From Candidatus Nezhaarchaeota archaeon WYZ-LMO8 (lineage in GTDB: Archaea; Thermoproteota; Methanomethylicia; Nezhaarchaeales; WYZ-LMO8), in contig QNVF01000007.1 in assembly GCA_004347965.1 (NCBI GenBank), positions 1 through 39,513 on the forward strand: a stretch of DNA of 39,513 nucleotides, read 5' to 3'. The position numbers and the translations under genes are program-made. Numbering within the stretch: the first letter of the stretch is position 1; each line of letters opens with the position of its first letter. Shown piece by piece: positions 2,643-21,182 of the stretch. Below the pieces are notes generated by a model. It was given only the letters and a program-made list of their open reading frames with translations. It was not told where the DNA came from and did no database searches.

Positions 2643-3131
2643 TCAGCTCTAAGTTACGGCTAATATAAACTCCTTATATCAAGTCATAGGTAGTTCATGA
2701 GTTACGAGGATCTCTCTACGTCTGGGGAATGTTCAAGCCCCATTGGAAACATAACTATTAGAAAGAACTTGAATAACTTAAGATCAGGGGTAAAAGCTTA
2801 GAACGAATAGCTTATGATCTAGCAAGGCATCGCTTATGGGGGTATGGTCGTTAATTGTAGAGTTATATCTACGGCCTTTAATTCAAAAAGTTACTGACGA
2901 ATAAGAAATCAAGCTTCACAGCTACGTACTCATCGGCTAAAAAGTTATGGTTGCTTGAACTCAGTTGCCGTAATTCGTGCGATGCATCAGATAGAGATGG
3001 AAGACTAGACGTCGATAATCACTTGCAAAGACTTAGCCTGTAGCCTAGCTTTTTAACTTTAAGCCAAGTAATTATTCTCCGATATTCAATTGCATGTTCC
3101 ATCATTTCTTGGCTAAACGCTAAGACGTATC

Positions 3132-3590
3132 TTATCGACTCCTCAAATACTCATTTCTTAACCTGTCTATCAAGCTCAAAAGTGCACTACTAAGCTCTAT
3201 GATGAGCTTATGAGGTACTACGTGGGCTTTTGGACATAATGGATCGACCACAATGCTATCTTTCTCTTCATCATATATAAGTGGGTATAAGCGGCAACCC
3301 TCAGGTCTATCTGGATAAATAATACAAGCATTAGTTCTTGGGTCAAGGAAGACGCAGTGCCCCTTCATGTTCTTCAACCTCGGTATTCGACCTCGACGAT
3401 CAACAAAGTACTCTTCAGGATAGCCAATCTTCTTAATTCTCTCTACGTCTCTCTTTGTAAGAGGCATTTTGGTGTCGTAACAGCACTTGCCGCATAACTC
3501 CTCATTGATCCTGCAATTAATGTAGAGAGTCGGATACATGCAGTTCAAAAGAAGTTGAGGGAACAAGTTAAAAATCTCTCCGGTCTTCAC
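3132..3590 (-). CDS. YkgJ-family cysteine-cluster (Fe-S/Zn) protein
   Basis: CGKCC...GHCVFLD...CIIYPDRPEGCRLYP motifs. Start is probably ATG 3542. Confidence 0.88.
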   Translation of the reverse strand: MKTGEIFNLFPQLLLNCMYPTLYINCRINEELCGKCCYDTKMPLTKRDVERIKKIGYPEEYFVDRRGRIPRLKNMKGHCVFLDPRTNACIIYPDRPEGCRLYPLIYDEEKDSIVVDPLCPKAHVVPHKLIIELSSALLSLIDRLRNEYLRSR

Positions 3591-3609
3591 ATTTTTTTGG
3601 GTTGCTAAA

Positions 3610-4380
3610 GTGGTCTTCGAAAGCAGTGTACGTTATGTAGCGGAGATGATTATTGAATCTAAGAAAACTGTAGCATTAACTGGGGCTGGAATATCAACTG
3701 AAAGTGGTATACCTGATTTCAGGGGTCCTGAAGGGCTGTGGAAGAAAATAGATCCTAGACTTGTAACCATACAATCCTTTAGGATGTTTCCAGAAGTTTT
3801 TTGGTACTTCATAGCTGAAAGATTCGAGAGCTTGATGAAGGCTCAACCAAATAAAGCACACTACGCCTTAGCTGAGCTTGAGAAAATTGGCAAACTTAGC
3901 TCAATAATAACTCAAAACGTCGATGGTCTCCACTTTAAAGCTGGGTCTAAAAACGTAATAGAGCTGCACGGTAACATGAGGGAAGCCATATGTATGAACT
4001 GCAGTACTATCGTGCCCATGGATGAGGCCCTAAAGATGGCCAAGAGGAATTACTACCTTCCGATGTGTAAAAGCTGTGGAGGAATCTTAAAGGCAAACGT
4101 CATACTATTCAATGAGCCTTTACCAAAAGAAGCGATCGAGAAAGCTCTTTGTGAGAGCAGAACATGCGACTTGATGTTGGTTATAGGAACATCATTACAA
4201 GTGTACCCAGCTGCATATATGCCAGCTATTGCGAAGCAGAGAGGGGCAAAGCTTGCGATAATAAACATGGAGCCAACACCGTTAGATGATAGCGCTGATG
4301 TAGTGATTCATGCAAAAGCTGGTGAAGTCCTGCCAGTAATAGTTGGGATCATTAAAGAAAAGCTTATGAGAGCATCCTAG
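3610..4380 (+). CDS. cobB: NAD-dependent protein deacylase, Sir2/CobB family
   Basis: TGAGISTESGIPDFRG, ITQNVDGLH, ELHGN, CxxC...CxxC zinc ribbon, GTSLQVYPA. Confidence 0.96.
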   Translation: MVFESSVRYVAEMIIESKKTVALTGAGISTESGIPDFRGPEGLWKKIDPRLVTIQSFRMFPEVFWYFIAERFESLMKAQPNKAHYALAELEKIGKLSSIITQNVDGLHFKAGSKNVIELHGNMREAICMNCSTIVPMDEALKMAKRNYYLPMCKSCGGILKANVILFNEPLPKEAIEKALCESRTCDLMLVIGTSLQVYPAAYMPAIAKQRGAKLAIINMEPTPLDDSADVVIHAKAGEVLPVIVGIIKEKLMRAS

Positions 4381-4475
4381 TTAATGCCTAACTTAAGAGG
4401 TCTTTCTATAGTAAAGCTTAAAGAGACATAATCTTATTTTGAAACACACTAACGATACACATTTTGAAGTAATGT

Positions 4476-4539
4476 CGATGATGAGTACTGTTTTTATTAA
4501 TTTAGATTAATTAGTGGGAGAAGCCAAGCGCCTCCGAGA
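4476..4539 (+). ncRNA. Candidate C/D-box sRNA
   Basis: Perfect C box ATGATGA (4478-4484), D-like CCGA (4534-4537) preceded by a 12-nt AGCCAAGCGCCT, and a short TC/GA terminal pair. Internal boxes are degenerate. Confidence 0.3.
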
Positions 4540-4662
4540 TTTTTAACCCTTTAATCCATATCCTCAAGACATGATAACCGCTTTCGCTATCAGTGCTTTG
4601 ATTTATTCTCACATGCTGAGGATCGATGAGACTCTACTTCACCGAGATAAATTTAAGTATTT

Positions 4663-5163
4663 GTGCGCTACGCTCTCCCAAGAGAAGTAATGAATACTTC
4701 AGGTGAGGACTTAATAGAGGTCAAAGTTACTGGAATAGCGATGACCACAACTCCTCAAGGACCCATACCTGTAGCCTTCTTAGAAGATTCTCAAGAGAGA
4801 GTTTTACTTCTAGCAATGGACGGGGCTCAGGCCATGAGCATTAAGTGTATGCTTGATAGAGAATCAATACAAACAATCCACGGCTTTATGCTAGACGTTC
4901 TAAATCAGCTACACGTAAAAGTTAAGAGGGCGATTATTTACGGTATGAGTGGTCCAAGATTTCTAACAAAGATAGCTCTAGAGACTAGTGAAGGTCTTAA
5001 AGAAATAGAAGGTAGGACGGGTGACATAGTAACTTTAGCTTCTATAGCCAATGCACCCATATTAGTGTCTAGTGAAATAATGAATGAAATTGCACTTGAT
5101 AAAGCGGAGCTTTATAAGCCATTACCGGAACCAGAAGAAGAGGAGGAAGGAGAAGAAACCTAA
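4663..5163 (+). CDS. Bifunctional nuclease family protein (DUF151/BFN)
   Basis: VKVTGI...PVAFLED..RVLLLAMD..QAMSI...TIHGFM...EIEGRTGDIVTLA..ANAPILV follows the DUF151 layout; acidic C-terminal tail. Start is probably ATG 4690. Confidence 0.75.
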   Translation: MRYALPREVMNTSGEDLIEVKVTGIAMTTTPQGPIPVAFLEDSQERVLLLAMDGAQAMSIKCMLDRESIQTIHGFMLDVLNQLHVKVKRAIIYGMSGPRFLTKIALETSEGLKEIEGRTGDIVTLASIANAPILVSSEIMNEIALDKAELYKPLPEPEEEEEGEET

Positions 5164-15314: not shown

Positions 15315-15932
15315 TTAAACATCCACGCCCCTCTCACGAATGCCCCTTACAACCTTACCTATTAAGATGAAGTCATTAATCAGCATATTCTTCAATTTAG
15401 GATTATAGAGCCCAGCAGCTGGGTGATAGGTGGGTACGACTAGGAGGCTAAGATCTTCGAAGTTTATTTTAAATACTTGACCTCTAACAGTTGATATTCT
15501 CCCCCTATACGTCTTTACTCCACCTTTGAGAAGTATGTAGTTTGTTGAGTATCTGCCGAGACACACAATTAACTTGGGCTTTATAACTGCTACTTGCTTA
15601 TCAAGGTAGGGAGTACAGGCATCAACTTCATCAGGCAGGGGGTCTCTATTACCTGGAGGTCTACACTTCAAGATATTGGTTATGAAGACCTCATCTCTCC
15701 TAAAACCAGCCATTTCTAGGAGTTTATCTAGAAATTTTCCAGCAGCTCCAACAAAGGGTCTTCCCTCCACATCCTCATTGTACCCCGGGGCCTCCCCTAC
15801 GAGCATGACGTCAGCATATACGTCTCCTTGACCTGGAACTGGCTTCATCCTTGAAGACCATAACCTACACTTTCTACAACTAGCTACCTCCCTCGCTACC
15901 TCTTCTAATATCCTGACCCTCTCGTTTTCCAT
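15315..15932 (-). CDS. udg: Family-4 uracil-DNA glycosylase (4Fe-4S)
   Basis: CRKC, VGEAPG..ED..GRPFVGAAG, TNILKCRPPGNRDP, TYHPAA. Confidence 0.96.
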   Translation of the reverse strand: MENERVRILEEVAREVASCRKCRLWSSRMKPVPGQGDVYADVMLVGEAPGYNEDVEGRPFVGAAGKFLDKLLEMAGFRRDEVFITNILKCRPPGNRDPLPDEVDACTPYLDKQVAVIKPKLIVCLGRYSTNYILLKGGVKTYRGRISTVRGQVFKINFEDLSLLVVPTYHPAAGLYNPKLKNMLINDFILIGKVVRGIRERGVDV

Positions 15933-16114: not shown

Positions 16115-16750
16115 ATGATAAGGACCTTAGGTGGGACTTTGTTCTTAAGAAGAGGAATGATGAGTTTAAGAATAATATTATTTCTGCTATTATTACTATT
16201 GCTATCAACCATACTTCCTTGGCTCCTCATACCTATAGCCGCTTACATTGCTTACAAAGTTGGGAGATGGCTCTACAAGCTTGTTAAGAGCCTTAAATGG
16301 CCTAAGGCAGGAGGGAAGAGGAAGGAGCGCGTGAGCAGCGTTTCAACGGTTGGTGACATTCAAGTTTATGAAGTTGAAGGTATTGGACAAGCTCTCGTTG
16401 TGAAGAACGGTCTCGAAGCCCTAGGTTTAGGATGCTTAGAGGTAAGGTCTCTTGGTGGAGGTCGACTTGCTGAGCTTCTTAGTGCTATCGATGCGACGGT
16501 GAAGACAGGATTCGAGAGTAGCTTAATAGTTTCTAAGAGAACGTCGGGGGATGCTTGCTTCATGATCATGATCAAGGTCCGTAAGCCAATGATTAAGGAC
16601 TTCCTGGAGACGGCCAAGGAGGTCGTAGATGACGTGGTTAAGGGGCTTACAGCAGCCATGGGAGCAATTAAGGCTAGGTTGCCGAGGTCTGAGGTTCACG
16701 TATTGGAGTTCGATGACCTCTTAAAAGCTATTAGAGGTGTTGTAGCGTGA
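16115..16750 (+). CDS. Membrane-anchored hypothetical protein, first gene of the operon
   Basis: Long hydrophobic N-terminus (IILFLLLLLLLSTILPWLLIPIAAYIAY), a basic linker, then an alpha/beta domain. Start is probably ATG 16157/16160. GTGA overlap with the next gene. Confidence 0.7.
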   Translation: MIRTLGGTLFLRRGMMSLRIILFLLLLLLLSTILPWLLIPIAAYIAYKVGRWLYKLVKSLKWPKAGGKRKERVSSVSTVGDIQVYEVEGIGQALVVKNGLEALGLGCLEVRSLGGGRLAELLSAIDATVKTGFESSLIVSKRTSGDACFMIMIKVRKPMIKDFLETAKEVVDDVVKGLTAAMGAIKARLPRSEVHVLEFDDLLKAIRGVVA

Positions 16751-18030
16751 GCACCATAGTGGAGGTTGGGTGGATTGTTGATGGGGATGCGGATGCGCTG
16801 GTGGACACATTGAGGATCGATCTCTCTAACGTACATTTGCTAACGGTCAGCGGCGCCTGGAGCTTAAACGCTACTTGCCACTTATTGGGTCAAGTAGCGG
16901 GCTCAGTGAATTTAGTAGTAGTATCTCCTTACACAGCTGAGGGGCCTCAATGGCTTCGGCACTTGAGCCTTGGCTTGAACGCCTCGTTCAACCCCTTTAA
17001 ACCCGTTGGAGACAAGCTAGCATACTCACATTTCATTGCCGACATCTTCAAGGGAGCCTTTAGTCTGAACAATGCGCAAACCTCAGCTTTGAGGAGAGCG
17101 CTGATGAGAGCCTATCTAAGCAGTAAGGAGCCAACCGCTGAGGACGTTCTATCCGCATTAGAGATAGAATCAACCGAACTAACAAACCGAGATTCCATCG
17201 AGCTGATAGAGATCGTGGAGGCGATGTGTAGAGGTAGACTTGGAGCTGCGTGTACTAATCGATTAGAGCTCACGGATCTTCAAGCCATAATCTCGATGTC
17301 TGAGCTGCCACCAAGCTATGCCTCAATTCTATCCATGGCTATGTTAATGTATTTGGTGAAGAATGGCTTTAAAGGGGTCGTAGTACTATGCAACCTCGAT
17401 GTTCTCAGAGAATTCATTGGTTCCGCTTGGAGAAATTTCGTATACCTGGTTAATAAAATGAAGGTCGAACCTTTGACAATCATCGCCTGCACGAGCAGCG
17501 CATCGTTCACGCCACTAGAGTTGAGGACTAGAGCTCACATGATTATTGTCGGCTCACCTTTAACTCCTGAAGATGCCAAGTACGTTAGTGCTATGGTTGG
17601 CCGAAAACGTCTTAAGCTACTCAATAGCAAGGAGAGGTTCGCCTATAACCTCATTTCCTCAAGCGGAGTCATCGAGATACCGCTTGAAGAGACAGTGAAG
17701 ATGCATGTGGAAGAGGAGCTGAAAGCTCTTCTGGAAGCTCCTCGATCAATGCTTCACGCAAAGCTTGGCAATAAAGCTAAGATGGCATACGATATCTTAA
17801 GCTTCTTAAGGGATGGAGCGTCGACGAGAGACTCCGTGATATCTTATGCAATGCATAGGCTCGACGTATCATCGTTGGAGGCCTCAAGGCTTGTTAACAC
17901 ACTACTGATCCATGGACTTGCAAGTGAGGTTGTTGGGGCTGACGGTAAGTATTGGCTCAAGATTACAGTTCGAGGGCTCAACGCTTTAGAGGAGCTTGAA
18001 GCGTTAGAGGGGTGGTTGACACGAGAATAG
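16747..18030 (+). CDS. HerA/VirB4-like (DUF87-type) protein with degenerate Walker motifs and a C-terminal winged helix
   Basis: Helical-insert pattern SFNPFKP...IADIFKGAFSLNNAQTSALRRALMRAY...PTAEDVL. The Walker A position reads HLLTVSGAWSLN and the Walker B position VVVLCNLD. C-terminal AYDILSFLRDG..TRDSVI...EASRLVNTLLIHGL...YWLKITVRG resembles a wHTH. Confidence 0.6.
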   Translation: MSTIVEVGWIVDGDADALVDTLRIDLSNVHLLTVSGAWSLNATCHLLGQVAGSVNLVVVSPYTAEGPQWLRHLSLGLNASFNPFKPVGDKLAYSHFIADIFKGAFSLNNAQTSALRRALMRAYLSSKEPTAEDVLSALEIESTELTNRDSIELIEIVEAMCRGRLGAACTNRLELTDLQAIISMSELPPSYASILSMAMLMYLVKNGFKGVVVLCNLDVLREFIGSAWRNFVYLVNKMKVEPLTIIACTSSASFTPLELRTRAHMIIVGSPLTPEDAKYVSAMVGRKRLKLLNSKERFAYNLISSSGVIEIPLEETVKMHVEEELKALLEAPRSMLHAKLGNKAKMAYDILSFLRDGASTRDSVISYAMHRLDVSSLEASRLVNTLLIHGLASEVVGADGKYWLKITVRGLNALEELEALEGWLTRE

Positions 18031-18350
18031 AGAGAAGGGGTAGCTCATTAACTTGGGTTGTGGGAGTATCGTGTAAAGGGCTCTATACAGTCTCATTAAC
18101 ATTGTATAAATCAAGTAGTGGTTGGAGGGTGAAGAGAGAGTTAAGATTGAAGATTAAAAGAGCAGAGGATGAGAGGACCTTATTCATTGAGGATTACAGC
18201 CTACCAGAGTTCCAAGCCATTTTAGAGGCCTTCCAGTCCATGACGTCAGAGATCGACGTCGATGAAAGTGCTCGACGTCTTACCCTCGCTCTTAGAGCAT
18301 CAACGATCATCAACCTTCTCGTTCAAGAGCTCGGAGGTGTCTCTAGGTGA
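18012..18350 (+). CDS. Small hypothetical protein, possible PC4/PUR/Whirly-like ssDNA-binding fold
   Basis: Overlaps both neighbours. Four predicted beta strands with aromatic and basic residues, then the helix SLPEFQAILEAF. The fold call is inference. Confidence 0.55.
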   Translation: MVDTRIERRGSSLTWVVGVSCKGLYTVSLTLYKSSSGWRVKRELRLKIKRAEDERTLFIEDYSLPEFQAILEAFQSMTSEIDVDESARRLTLALRASTIINLLVQELGGVSR

Positions 18351-19309
18351 AGGGTGAAGTGAAGCTTGAGGACCTAGAGGGTATAGGACCCAAAACCGCA
18401 GAAAAACTTCGAAGCATTGGTATATGCTCAGCTAAGCACTTATCGCTTTTCAACGTTGATGAGCTCCTCAACTTAGTTGACGTCGATGAGAGGACTTTAA
18501 GGAGAGCTCTAGCTCACGCTAGAAGCATTTTCATGCCGTTAAGGGCTATTAAGGCCTTAGATAACTTGGCTCAAAAGTCTCTACCGCAATTAACAACTGG
18601 TGTCAAGAGCATAGATCTCCTCCTCAATGGTGGTCTAAGGCCTAGAGCAATCTACGAACTGTGTGGGCAACCAGGAGCTGGGAAGACTCAGCTTTGTCTA
18701 CAGCTATCAGTTACAATTCAGCTCTCAGCCAATAAGGGAGGTATTGGAGGTAAATGCTACTTCATGGATACTGAGGGAACCTTCAGCCTCAGCAGGGTCA
18801 AGGTCATAGCCGAGAGGTTTGGGCTCGACTCCGAGTACGCGTTAAGCAACATCTACGTCATAGACGTCATAAACACGGATCATCTACTTCAAGTGATAAC
18901 CTCAGACCTCGTTAGGGCTGTGGAGGATGGAGTGAAGTTAGTGATCGTGGACTCTTTGATGTCGAGGTTTAGAACTGAGTATGCTGGAAGAGAGTCTTTA
19001 GCTTTAAGGCAGAGTAGACTTGGTTATGCGCTTGACTGGCTTGTAAGGATAGCTAGGCTCTATGAGGTCATAGTGATCGTAACAACTCCAGTAATGGAAG
19101 TGCCAGTAGCATTTGTAAGCATAAATGAAAGACTAAGACCTGTTGGAGGCACGACATTAGCTCACGCTACGACTCACAGATTCTTCCTGACCACTAGAAG
19201 TGAAAGGGGCGTGCTTAGAGGTACCATGACCGTCCTAGATAGTCCATCTCTACCTCATGGAGCTATAGCAAGCTACTTGATAACCGACAAAGGGATTGAA
19301 GATGCGTAA
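18347..19309 (+). CDS. Divergent full-length RadA/Rad51 paralog
   Basis: N-terminal HhH (LEDLEGIGPKTAEKL), TTGVKSIDLLLNGG, Walker A GQPGAGKT, MDTEGTF, Walker B LVIVDS, FRTEY.GR..L..RQ, GG..LAH, DSPSLP, ITDKGIED. GGAGGTG ribosome-binding site. Confidence 0.9.
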   Translation: MKGEVKLEDLEGIGPKTAEKLRSIGICSAKHLSLFNVDELLNLVDVDERTLRRALAHARSIFMPLRAIKALDNLAQKSLPQLTTGVKSIDLLLNGGLRPRAIYELCGQPGAGKTQLCLQLSVTIQLSANKGGIGGKCYFMDTEGTFSLSRVKVIAERFGLDSEYALSNIYVIDVINTDHLLQVITSDLVRAVEDGVKLVIVDSLMSRFRTEYAGRESLALRQSRLGYALDWLVRIARLYEVIVIVTTPVMEVPVAFVSINERLRPVGGTTLAHATTHRFFLTTRSERGVLRGTMTVLDSPSLPHGAIASYLITDKGIEDA

Positions 19310-19631
19310 TAGAGAGCCTCGTATGAACGCTAAGATCTTAGACGATCGCATAATAGAGAAGCTCTTAGCGCTAATGGAGAACAAAGGATCTTCCTGGATC
19401 AAGAGGAGCATGAAGAGGGTGCATGATGTTTATGAATGCGACAGGAATACATGGATCGTTAGAGGGAGAAAAAGTCTCGGAGATGAAGAGACAATATACG
19501 TGGTTGAGTATGATGAAGAAAAAGGAAGCTTCAAGTGTACTTGTCACCAACCCTACAAACCCTACGCTAGGAGTAGGAGACGAGCATGCACTCACGTGGG
19601 TGCATGTCTCTTTCATCACATATTTTTCTAA
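19296..19631 (+). CDS. Stand-alone SWIM zinc-finger protein
   Basis: WIVRG...YVVEY...FKCTC...ACTHVGA matches CxC-x(14)-CxH preceded by beta strands. Overlaps the stop of the radA-like gene; start is 19296 or 19302. Confidence 0.85.
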   Translation: MKMRNREPRMNAKILDDRIIEKLLALMENKGSSWIKRSMKRVHDVYECDRNTWIVRGRKSLGDEETIYVVEYDEEKGSFKCTCHQPYKPYARSRRRACTHVGACLFHHIFF

Positions 19632-19655: not shown

Positions 19656-20048
19656 GTGGGAAGATCTTATCTAGTAGTTGGCGACGGCAACAAACCCTTA
19701 CTGAAGTCGCTGGAGATCGCAAAGGGTAAGAGGATTGTGGTCTCTGACAAGCCATTAGAGGTTGATGGTTTCATCGAAATTTTAGATATATTTAAACAGT
19801 TCAATCAAATAGCTTCATTACCTCTAGAGCTTTCAGAGAACGATAGTCTTGTACTAGACCTGTATGCTCACGTCTCTAGACTATCTGCTTTAAGTAGGTA
19901 CGCTAGCGTGAAGTTGTACTTGAGGTTGTGCAGGATGTTGATTGCGTCAGCTAAAGCTAAGTGCTTTAATATCTACATTAATTGTAATAGGAGCTCGAAA
20001 CTTTATGTGAAGCTAAGGGCTACTGTTGACGAGGAGGTGCCTTGCTAA
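19656..20048 (+). CDS. Small hypothetical protein, probable minimal degenerate RecA/KaiC-fold
   Basis: SYLVVGDG (P-loop strand without GKT), IVVSD, SLVLD (Walker B-like), a long helix, NIYIN and LRATVDEEV follow RecA-core order. GAGGT ribosome-binding site. Confidence 0.55.
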   Translation: MGRSYLVVGDGNKPLLKSLEIAKGKRIVVSDKPLEVDGFIEILDIFKQFNQIASLPLELSENDSLVLDLYAHVSRLSALSRYASVKLYLRLCRMLIASAKAKCFNIYINCNRSSKLYVKLRATVDEEVPC

Positions 20049-20806
20049 TGGAGGTGAAGATCATACCGATAAGAGGCATACCAGTACCAGTCAAACCTGG
20101 AGATGACATAGCGAAACTCATATGCGAAGCAGCAGAAAGGCAGGGGACACCGCTGCTTGACGGCGACATCCTCGTCGTCTCCCAGAAGATAGTTTCGAAA
20201 GCTTGTGGTCACATATTCAGGCTAAGTGAGGTGAAGCCATCAGAAGAGGCAGTTAAGATATCAAGGATCTTGGAGAAGTCTCCAGAGCTTGTAGAAATAA
20301 TACTTAGAGAAACCAATAGAATAGTCAGGCTTAAGAACAAGCACATAATATGCGAAACCAAACATGGCTTTGTTTGCGCCAATGCTGGAGTGGATGTCTC
20401 CAACGTTGATGGAGGTTTAAGTGCGGTGACCTTACCCCTAGACCCTGACAAGGAGGCATCTAAGATAAGAGAGACAGTAAAGAAAATGAAGGGAGTGGAC
20501 ATTGCGGTCATAATTAGTGACACTCATGGCAGAGCTTTCAGGAGAGGTCAAGTGAATGTGGCGATAGGCGTAGCTGGGATGAAACCTTTGAGGGACAGGA
20601 GGGGGGAGAGAGACCTCTTCGGCTACATCCTCAAGTTCAAATTCATAGCCATAGTCGATGAGATAGCATCTGCAGCTGAGCTAGTAATGGGTCAAGCCGA
20701 TGAAGGTGTTCCAGCAGCAATCATAAGAGGACTAAGGTATGAAAGAGACGAGTCTGCATCAATTAAGGATCTTGTAATGTCTCCAGAGGAGGACTTGTTC
20801 CGTTAA
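20042..20806 (+). CDS. cofE: Coenzyme F420-0:L-glutamate ligase
   Basis: DGDILVVSQKIVSKA, CANAGVDVSN, LPLDPD, ISDTHGRAFRRG, DEIASAAELVMGQADEG.P. Likely start is ATG 20048 (TAATG overlap, after GAGGAGGTG). Confidence 0.95.
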   Translation: MLMEVKIIPIRGIPVPVKPGDDIAKLICEAAERQGTPLLDGDILVVSQKIVSKACGHIFRLSEVKPSEEAVKISRILEKSPELVEIILRETNRIVRLKNKHIICETKHGFVCANAGVDVSNVDGGLSAVTLPLDPDKEASKIRETVKKMKGVDIAVIISDTHGRAFRRGQVNVAIGVAGMKPLRDRRGERDLFGYILKFKFIAIVDEIASAAELVMGQADEGVPAAIIRGLRYERDESASIKDLVMSPEEDLFR

Positions 20807-20891: not shown

Positions 20892-21182
20892 ATGAGCAAA
20901 CCAAGACCTGGAGAGAATGTTGTCCTTGTTGGGAACAAACCAACTATGAATTATGTGCTTGCAACAGTAATACAATTCAACCAAGGAGCTGACAAGGTCG
21001 TCATAAAGGCTAGAGGAAGGGCTATATCGAAGGCTGTCGATGCAGCTGAGATAGTTAAGACGAGGTTCCTCATGAACCAGGTAGAGATAACTGATGTAAA
21101 GATAGGGACAGAGAAAGTCGGTGAAGGCGAGCAGTCCAGAAACGTCTCCACAATAGAGATAACGTTGGAGAGAAAGAAGTAG
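20892..21182 (+). CDS. albA: DNA/RNA-binding protein Alba
   Basis: [39 protein letters not shown] ribosome-binding site and TTTAAAA at 20826-20832. Confidence 0.97.

Follow-up and report, generated by a model that had tools for sequence, protein, structure and literature searches.

A full-length archaeal RadA paralog without the polymerization phenylalanine and its conserved operon with a SWIM-like gene

RadA-type recombinases polymerize by inserting an invariant phenylalanine (Phe97 in Pyrococcus furiosus, Pfu) into a hydrophobic socket of the neighboring protomer, where Pfu Ala203 lies, and the available text of the same source reports that changing the phenylalanine of human RAD51 to glutamate abolishes polymerization (PMC5480776). 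The archaeal RecA-family paralogs RadB and aRadC, the latter including SsoRal1 and Sulfolobus RadC, coexist with RadA and are proposed to be mediators (excerpts of PMC4080772 and PMC5480776); both are described as lacking the N-terminal domain that binds double-stranded DNA, and aRadC as a clade distinct from RadA (PMC4080772, in part). In the eukaryotic Shu complex, a SWIM protein is paired with degenerate Rad51-family proteins, some of them ATPase-dead (accessible portions of PMC5727457 and PMC6316741), and the first of these papers calls Shu2 orthologs conserved "from archaea to humans." Here we describe RadA2, encoded by an open reading frame (ORF) in a stretch of 39,513 nucleotides (nt) of contig QNVF01000007.1 of Candidatus Nezhaarchaeota archaeon WYZ-LMO8 (assembly GCA_004347965.1); the whole of this stretch is called the window below.

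Archaeal recombination mediators are poorly understood, and RadB and aRadC are the kinds that are known. RadA2, as far as its sequence and setting can tell, is a third kind of archaeal RadA paralog, one that is full-length, has no polymerization phenylalanine, and sits in an operon with SWIM-like, RecA-like, and dead HerA-fold proteins. Our favored reading, to which we give a probability of about 0.5, is that RadA2 is a non-polymerizing accessory subunit of a Shu-like recombination-mediator module. Full-text literature searches, which did not cover older SWS1-related work, returned no description of this paralog or of its operon. In some Asgard archaea two RadA clades are found, with extra paralogs beside RadA in one genome, according to the portion of a 2025 paper that was available (PMC12722695); these archaea belong to another phylum, and that portion mentions no loss of FxxA, operon, or SWIM partner.

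RadA2 and the canonical RadA of the same genome

RadA2 has the layout of a complete RadA. The N-terminal helix-hairpin-helix (HhH) domain (residues 6-59) is matched by Pfam HHH_5 at 32.5 bits (cut-off 27) and is followed by a RecA core (residues 77-320) matched by Pfam Rad51 at 203 bits. Among proteins of solved structure, RadA2 is closest to P. furiosus Rad51/RadA (1pzn, E = 1.4e-56) and Sulfolobus solfataricus RadA (2bke, E = 3e-56), to which it aligns over nearly its full length (residues 6-320). With these canonical proteins it shares the HhH domain, the linker, and the RecA core, and it keeps the P-loop glycines, the Walker A Lys and Thr, the catalytic Glu, Walker B, and the L1 arginines; it differs from them in lacking the Phe, in having the socket Ala replaced, in coexisting with a true RadA, and in sitting in a dedicated operon.

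The initial annotation, made from the sequence without database searches, had likened RadA2 to Rad51B/C/D. As a statement of relatedness this is not supported: against the RadA match at 1.4e-56, the Protein Data Bank (PDB) matches to Rad57 (1e-20), XRCC3 (3.5e-20), and RAD51B (1.8e-19) are far weaker. Its assertion that the protein is neither RadB nor aRadC is well founded, in that the N-terminal domain is present and the RadB model TIGR02237 gives 105.3 bits against a cut-off of 172.4. The other RadB model, NF006861, gives 70.9 bits (cut-off 278), KaiC models give 29 bits or less, and RadB proteins are about 210 to 240 amino acids (aa) long compared with 320 for RadA2.

The motif strings quoted from the start (GQPGAGKT, TTPV, GGTTLAH, the L1 region FRTEYAGRESLALRQ at residues 208-222, and the catalytic DTE at residues 141-143, within DTEG) are all present in the translation, and Walker B reads LVIVDS. 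The FxxA motif had been called missing from the linker IFMPLRAIKALD (residues 61-72). This is half correct, with the Phe replaced by Ala and the Ala of the motif retained. The residues lost from TNQV and GG[HN] are ones that we take, from the RecA/RadA literature, to be sensors, the Gln of the gamma-phosphate and the His/Asn of ATP. In the window's family, which carries our code f1, L2 also has a 4-residue insertion.

A canonical RadA is encoded on another contig of the window's assembly (1.35 Mb, 78 contigs, 93% complete; genome G000). This 322-aa protein (G000:C17:11970-12893) has the motifs FKTA, GEYGSGKT, TNQV, and GGHVLFH and scores 460.9 bits on the RadA equivalog model TIGR02236. RadA2 scores 245.8 bits on the same model and fails its cut-off of 361.15; on the NCBIfam RadA model NF003301 it is barely over the cut-off (259.4 versus 259 bits). 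TIGR02236 finds a match with an E of at most 1e-30 in all of the 41 genomes searched (the window's own and 40 relatives), and in 39 of them a match exceeds the cut-off; in many, the full-length RadA-like genes number two to four and fall into separate tiers by score. We conclude from these comparisons that the strand-exchange enzyme of the organism is probably the protein on the other contig, with RadA2 as its paralog. The existence of a second, canonical radA bears out the earlier view that RadA2 is not the main recombinase. One might still suppose that RadA2 is a fast-evolving main RadA, pointing to its NF003301 score and to the relatives that some databases name "RadA." We give this next to no credence and consider it refuted: the genome has a canonical RadA as well, RadA matches occur throughout the 41 genomes, and RadA2 both fails TIGR02236 and lacks the invariant Phe. 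With relatives named "RadA" or "AAA family ATPase," genome surveys may therefore miscount recombinases.

Other RecA-family genes were seen as well. Two genes from the canonical radA on contig C17 lies a short one of 248 aa with the P-loop GEAGSGKT (L004:3122-3868, minus strand). Its best model is RadB, at 79.9 bits and so under the 172.4 cut-off, and it is possibly the genome's RadB/aRadC-type paralog. A third full-length RadA, scoring 456 to 474 bits, over the curated cut-offs, and with FxxA kept, occurs in same-genus or same-family genomes (L058, L060, and L061, at G006:C2, G004:C1, and G009:C6). Together with the sole high-scoring RadA of family f5 it forms a separate clade, "b" (ultrafast bootstrap [UFBoot] 94, SH-like approximate likelihood ratio test [SH-aLRT] 88), and the class therefore has two canonical RadA lineages. 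This "b" RadA was not found in G000, whose 93%-complete assembly shows one canonical RadA.

The RadA2 clade and its polymerization motif

The nearest database relatives of RadA2 come from Candidatus Nezhaarchaeales/Nezhaarchaeota, at 78 to 87% identity, after which identity drops to about 50% and below. Trees were built from database hits, the RadA-like genes of related genomes, and the genome's canonical RadA. In a FastTree analysis of 148 rows, RadA2 falls in a group of 63 with a support of 99. A smaller tree of 84 of these rows comprised 25 operon-linked genes, 19 Phe-less database hits, 29 canonical ("c") rows, 6 "b" rows, and 5 rows of another paralog ("d"). Under LG+C20 in IQ-TREE, the 44 operon-linked and Phe-less rows form one clade (UFBoot 98 and SH-aLRT 97 in a careful search; SH-aLRT 94 in a quick one) with no canonical row inside it, and its rows group by family code. 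Among its members is P0027, a "RadA" from a cultured relative that its source names Vulcanisaeta thermophila. A phylogeny spanning RadA, RadB, aRadC, and Rad51 paralogs had been envisaged at the outset; ours, which is unrooted and leaves out RadB, aRadC, and the eukaryotic paralogs, places RadA2 inside the archaeal RadA radiation. Its sole Asgard row, a Heimdall RadA (P0113), stands among the canonical rows.

RadA2 thus named appears to be an old, well-supported family of full-length RadA paralogs in Thermoproteota. A recent lineage-specific duplication was considered and is ruled out, as the clade spans many families. The ratio of nonsynonymous to synonymous substitution rates (dN/dS) of RadA2 against the same-genus ortholog is 0.058, which marks RadA2 as a genuine, conserved gene rather than a product of chance; the same value rules out a pseudogene or a decaying duplicate.

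The Phe of FxxA is found in none of the 44 clade rows, compared with 34 of 35 canonical rows. The other changes are much rarer: TTP for TNQ, GGT for GG[HN], and a Walker A beginning with GQP occur in 4 of the 44, all of family f1, and are unseen in canonical rows. It is the loss of the Phe "ball," therefore, that defines the family. Elsewhere in the clade the GG[HN] position holds N or H, with one M, so that GG[NHM] is kept in 40 of 44 rows, and N[QHE] is likewise kept in 40. The Walker A Lys and Thr (or Ser), the catalytic Glu, and the Walker B Asp are present in every RadA2 row and every canonical row. Two of the 29 "c" rows likewise have Gln at the second position of Walker A, so this change is not diagnostic alone.

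Given the clade-wide loss of the ball, RadA2 should not extend a normal RadA filament. In f1, the loss of the TNQV Gln and of the GG[HN] residue suggests that ATP sensing has been uncoupled from the DNA-binding loop. This degeneration of the ATP sensors looks like a late, family-specific change in the Nezhaarchaeales lineage. The initial annotation had described polymerization and sensor residues as lost together, which is true of the window's protein; it missed the lateness of the sensor change, which is not shared by the clade, as well as the conserved operon with a SWIM-like partner described below.

The "d" rows (L022 to L026, families f2 and f3) represent another RadA-like paralog, about 300 aa long and not linked to the operon. 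Neither the Phe nor the Ala of FxxA is kept in them, L1 is shortened, and GG[FPV] stands in place of GG[HN]; they score 185 to 232 bits on TIGR02236.

The operon and its SWIM-like gene

RadA2 belongs to a set of six overlapping or abutting genes, all read in one direction, in which it comes fourth (Table 1); we call this set the cassette. Of 18 loci compared by BLASTP, 13 have the RadA2 ortholog with homologs of genes 2 and 5 on its flanks, the other 5 having instead the "d" paralog. With profile hidden Markov models we examined 28 loci, of which 26 (the window included) have a RadA2-type gene. The HerA-like gene 2 profile lies upstream of RadA2 in 25 of the 26, and the exception has a 453-aa ORF in that place. 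The SWIM-like gene 5 profile adjoins RadA2 in 23: in 22 it follows RadA2 directly, and L107, with its altered gene order, has it just upstream.

Of 401 Thermoproteota genomes sampled, 65 are matched by the profile of gene 5 and 51 by that of gene 2. Both markers lie within about 3 kb on one contig, by comparison of coordinates by eye, in 24 of the 401, representing 11 family codes (f1, f2, f3, f4, f6, f7, f9, f22, f41, f55, and f61). Both are present in 5/5 genomes of f4 and 4/4 of f7, and f3 has the SWIM-like gene in 4/4 and the HerA-like gene in 3/4. The cassette is thus found in all sampled genomes of several families, in one copy per genome. All six genes are under purifying selection, with dN/dS of 0.056 to 0.123 against the same-genus genome G006 at a dS of about 0.9 to 1.1 (gene 1, 0.091; gene 3, 0.123; gene 6, 0.056). 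Four hot-spring metatranscriptome runs gave 0, 0, 1, and 0 reads on the operon, too few to bear on its expression.

Table 1. Features at the RadA2 locus, with positions in the window
Feature	Position	Strand	Description
Gene 4, RadA2	18347..19309	+	GTG start, 320 aa; HhH N-terminal domain and RecA core, full-length RadA paralog
AIKA at the FxxA position, RadA2 residues 67-70	18545..18556	+	Opposite FMRA of 1pzn and FKTA of 2bke (HMMER alignments)
Walker A GQPGAGKT, RadA2 residues 107-114	18665..18688	+	From translation and alignment
TTPV replacing TNQV, RadA2 residues 246-249	19082..19093	+	Gln lost
GGTTLAH replacing GG[HN]xxAH, RadA2 residues 267-273	19145..19165	+	End of L2; from alignment
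Gene 1	16115..16750	+	211 aa; N-terminal hydrophobic (membrane) segment
Gene 2	16747..18030	+	427 aa; HerA/VirB4/TrwB (FtsK-HerA superfamily) fold, no Walker A GK[ST]
Gene 3	18012..18350	+	112 aa; no family match; constant position between gene 2 and RadA2
Gene 5	19296..19631	+	111 aa; SWIM-like zinc-finger protein; true start may be ATG at 19302
Gene 6	19656..20048	+	130 aa; RecA-core equivalents in f2, f3, and f9
cofE	20042..20806	+	F420-0:gamma-glutamyl ligase; overlaps gene 6 stop; neighbor only in f1, outside the conserved cassette
Type-4 uracil-DNA glycosylase	15315..15932	-	256.6 bits (cut-off 250); divergent from the cassette; neighbor in f1 only
Alba gene	20892..21182	+	127.9 bits; downstream of cofE; neighbor in f1 only

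Gene 5 carries a CxCx14CxHxxA motif at residues 81-103 (nt 19536..19604), and CxCxnCxHxxA is given as the SWIM signature in the accessible parts of PMC5727457 and PMC6316741. The residues C81, C83, C98, and H100 are invariant in 14/14 gene 5 sequences; CxCx13-15CxH is present in all 22 homologs, with Ala (14) or Ser (8) three residues after the His. The AlphaFold2 model has a predicted local distance difference test (pLDDT) score of 79.6. When it was compared with 48,161 chains by VIA-align, ZSWIM8 (9rwz_M) came first, with 99 residues aligned at a root mean square deviation of 6.3 and a Z of 7.1, a value in the range common among unrelated best hits and obtained over ZSWIM8 residues 71-210, which are not confirmed as its SWIM domain. 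The next row has a Z of 3.9, and Shu1:Shu2 (6dex_B) ranks seventh with 3.3. In the ESM Atlas, 18 of 30 hits fall in PF04434 clusters, with a score of 0.94. We regard gene 5, with moderate confidence, as a divergent SWIM-type finger. Its database relatives are unnamed "hypothetical" proteins with no Pfam domain in 37 of 37 clusters, and the alignment profiles of genes 5 and 2 found nothing meaningful among PDB sequences (best E = 0.36 and 0.3). Predictions of a complex between RadA2 and the SWIM-like protein, run without controls, scored 0.26 and 0.19, under the 0.32 mark.

The gene 2 product, modeled at a pLDDT of 79.2, has the fold of the FtsK-HerA superfamily. Foldseek matches it to VirB4 (4ag5, E = 1.2e-9, TMq 0.58) and also to DndH, HerA (4d2i), and TrwB, with E from 1.2e-9 to 1e-6 and a probability of 1.00. 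One of eight homologs scanned, that of family f5, exceeds the Pfam DUF87/HerA cut-off (24.8 versus 23.2 bits). Two features set the protein apart from the HerA-NurA, VirB4, and other FtsK-HerA ATPases whose fold it shares: the Walker A GK[ST] P-loop is absent in 25/25 aligned homologs, and there is an extra C-terminal helical domain, which looks like a winged helix on inspection of the secondary structure of the model. HerA acts in archaeal end resection upstream of RadA; the cassette differs from HerA-NurA systems in containing no NurA, Mre11, or Rad50 gene. At L099 (G010:C14, around 3035-4668) a run of masked bases (X) interrupts the HerA-like gene, and its apparent split into ORFs of 232 and 349 aa is an artefact of the record.

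Gene 1 lies directly upstream of gene 2 in 25/25 loci, and all 25 positional homologs have a 19-aa Kyte-Doolittle window of 1.6 or more that starts within the first 70 residues. A small membrane-anchored protein next to a fold whose best match is VirB4 invites the idea of a membrane-associated apparatus for DNA import or transfer, derived from a VirB4-like type IV secretion system, with RadA2 processing single-stranded DNA at the membrane. VirB3 likewise lies upstream of VirB4. We consider this rather improbable. HerA, DndH, and TrwB match gene 2 about as well as VirB4 does; the product cannot be a motor, because none of the 25 homologs has a P-loop; and the 26 loci showed no sign of a pilin, a polytopic protein like VirB6, or a second ATPase.

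Many of the gene 2 fold matches are HerA subunits of defense complexes, SIR2-HerA and DUF4297-HerA, and in some families the SWIM-like ORFs are present in several copies, with as many as 9 matches in one genome. Both would suit an anti-virus defense system, or a mobile-element module, of the type associated with HerA. The cassette itself, in contrast, is single-copy and present in all sampled genomes of several families, the RadA2 tree groups its rows by family code, the cassette showed no effector domain such as a nuclease or Sir2, and the flanking genes (cofE, Alba, and the type-4 uracil-DNA glycosylase) are housekeeping ones. For these reasons a defense role is less likely than either DNA transfer or the second recombinase considered below, and we hold it to be very improbable.

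The remaining genes are less easily placed. Pfam matches none of the window's genes 1, 3, and 6, and none of the scanned homologs of gene 1 (0/14) or gene 3 (0/10). The positional equivalents of gene 6 in f2, f3, and f9 are RecA-core proteins (hhalign against RadA2, probability 96.5, E = 7.5e-10), and the homolog at L106 has an intact GEAGAGKT and scores 51 bits on the RadB model, under its cut-off. The f1 version aligns with those of f4 and f7 at a probability of 32 (E = 5e-4) and with the RecA-like ones of f2, f3, and f9 at 0.2, which is not significant. The ESM Atlas gave weak leads for gene 6 (0.84 to 0.85) to DUF7504, KaiC, and ELP6.

A candidate mediator module

We propose that RadA2 is made together with its operon partners as a DNA-binding, non-polymerizing subunit. 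These partners would be the SWIM-type protein, the small protein that is RecA-like in some families, the P-loop-less HerA/VirB4-fold protein, and the membrane-anchored protein. The module would bind DNA and help, position, or limit canonical RadA, functionally in the manner of the Shu and Rad51-paralog complexes; in one version, RadA2 would cap or nucleate filaments. What the comparisons show is the paralogy of RadA2, its clade and motif states, the conservation and purifying selection of the operon, and the fold of gene 2; we infer binding among the products, the inability of RadA2 to polymerize, and an action on RadA-dependent recombination.

The likeness to Shu (Shu2/SWS1 with SWSAP1, or Shu1-Psy3-Csm2) lies in a SWIM-like gene that abuts RadA2 in most loci and in a degenerate RecA-core gene that follows in some families. 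There are differences as well. Shu1, Csm2, Psy3, and SWSAP1 have no N-terminal domain, unlike RadA2. Compared with Shu, the archaeal cassette is known from gene order and adds a HerA-like and a membrane protein, and gene 5 matches Shu2 weakly and Pfam SWIM not at all.

Several observations weigh against this reading. That the six products associate is inferred from the order of their genes, and a DNA-transfer context would account equally well for the membrane protein and the VirB4-like fold. Three loci, all of family f5, have no detectable SWIM-like gene, the cassette being otherwise there, and in the window itself gene 6 is not detectably RecA-like (hhalign probability 1.2 against RadA2). 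As for gene 5, the Pfam SWIM model PF04434 matches 0/14 members at E up to 10, a Foldseek search with its model gave no match at E = 0.001 or better, and its leading VIA-align hit, as noted, has an unexceptional Z. Moreover, 40 of the 44 clade rows keep GxxGxGK[ST], the catalytic Glu, TN[QH], and GG[NH], so most RadA2 proteins could be active ATPases, even recombinases. The socket has changed too. The column of Pfu Ala203, which is Ala in 29/35 canonical rows, is mostly bulkier or Ser in RadA2 (Ile in 10 of 44 rows, Val in 9, Phe in 6, Tyr in 3, and Ser in 6) and is Ile in the window; this may reflect a remodeled self-contact rather than a socket left free for RadA.

Nine further socket positions, which we assume from the human RAD51 literature and mapped by alignment, are hydrophobic in RadA2, and several are bulkier (F/Y at q138, Y/F/L at q170). 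From such a pattern the socket could be either retained for the Phe of RadA or remodeled for self-contact. If the latter, RadA2 might be a second self-assembling recombinase that uses a smaller ball and socket (Val/Ile/Ala-x-x-Ala into a filled-in pocket), insulated from canonical RadA and serving a specialized DNA transaction encoded by the operon. The intact ATPase and sensor motifs of the 40 rows favor this, as do the HhH domain and L1 arginines that are kept, and ball and socket do change together: the Phe is gone from 44/44 rows, the socket Ala is replaced in most, and its neighbors are bulkier. A second recombinase nonetheless seems doubtful to us. The loss of Gln and His/Asn in f1, with its 4-residue insertion in L2, is hard to square with ATP-driven strand exchange; the socket positions other than Pfu Ala203 are taken from work on human RAD51 and mapped by alignment rather than on a structure; and we know of no case in which small hydrophobic residues in place of the Phe support polymerization. 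The abolition of polymerization by Phe to Glu in RAD51, as reported in the available text of PMC5480776, points the same way.

If the mediator reading is right and the complex acts on RadA, the mechanism of a Rad51-paralog or Shu-type mediator would become testable with thermostable, operon-encoded proteins, as would the questions of why SWIM proteins accompany mediators and whether the partnership predates eukaryotes. The range from motif-intact RadA2, in most families, to the sensor-dead form of f1 offers a natural series on whether such paralogs need ATP turnover. A bolder version, which we put forward tentatively and think unlikely as a whole, is that the partnership of a SWIM protein with degenerate Rad51/RadA paralogs, the core of the eukaryotic Shu complex (SWS1-SWSAP1; Shu2-Shu1-Psy3-Csm2), is already found as an operon in archaea. 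On this view the mediator complex would consist of RadA2, the SWIM-like protein, and a minimal RecA-like protein, with a dead HerA-like ring and a membrane anchor as its tether. Were this true, the Rad51-paralog machinery of eukaryotes would have a prokaryotic model in the cassette, and possibly its ancestor as well.

The SWIM-like family also occurs in other settings. At L102:5971-6768 (G131, family f22) the SWIM-like protein is 265 aa long and no separate gene 6 follows; the similarity by eye of its C-terminal half to the start of gene 6 suggests a fusion of the two, and hhalign of that half against the gene 6 alignments was not significant. In families f19, f31, and f33 a SWIM-like domain stands at the N terminus of multi-copy ORFs of 190 to 260 aa that do not adjoin RadA2 (L052 to L056, L083 to L085, and L095, among others); G057 has as many as 6 matches and G234 as many as 9, and the ORFs may represent a mobile or an expanded family. 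In two genomes of family f49 a KaiC-family gene (KaiC_arch_4, 378 bits) lies directly upstream of the SWIM-like gene (L049:728-1525 and L050:1924-2718), and the partners of the SWIM-like family within the RecA superfamily are thus of more than one kind.

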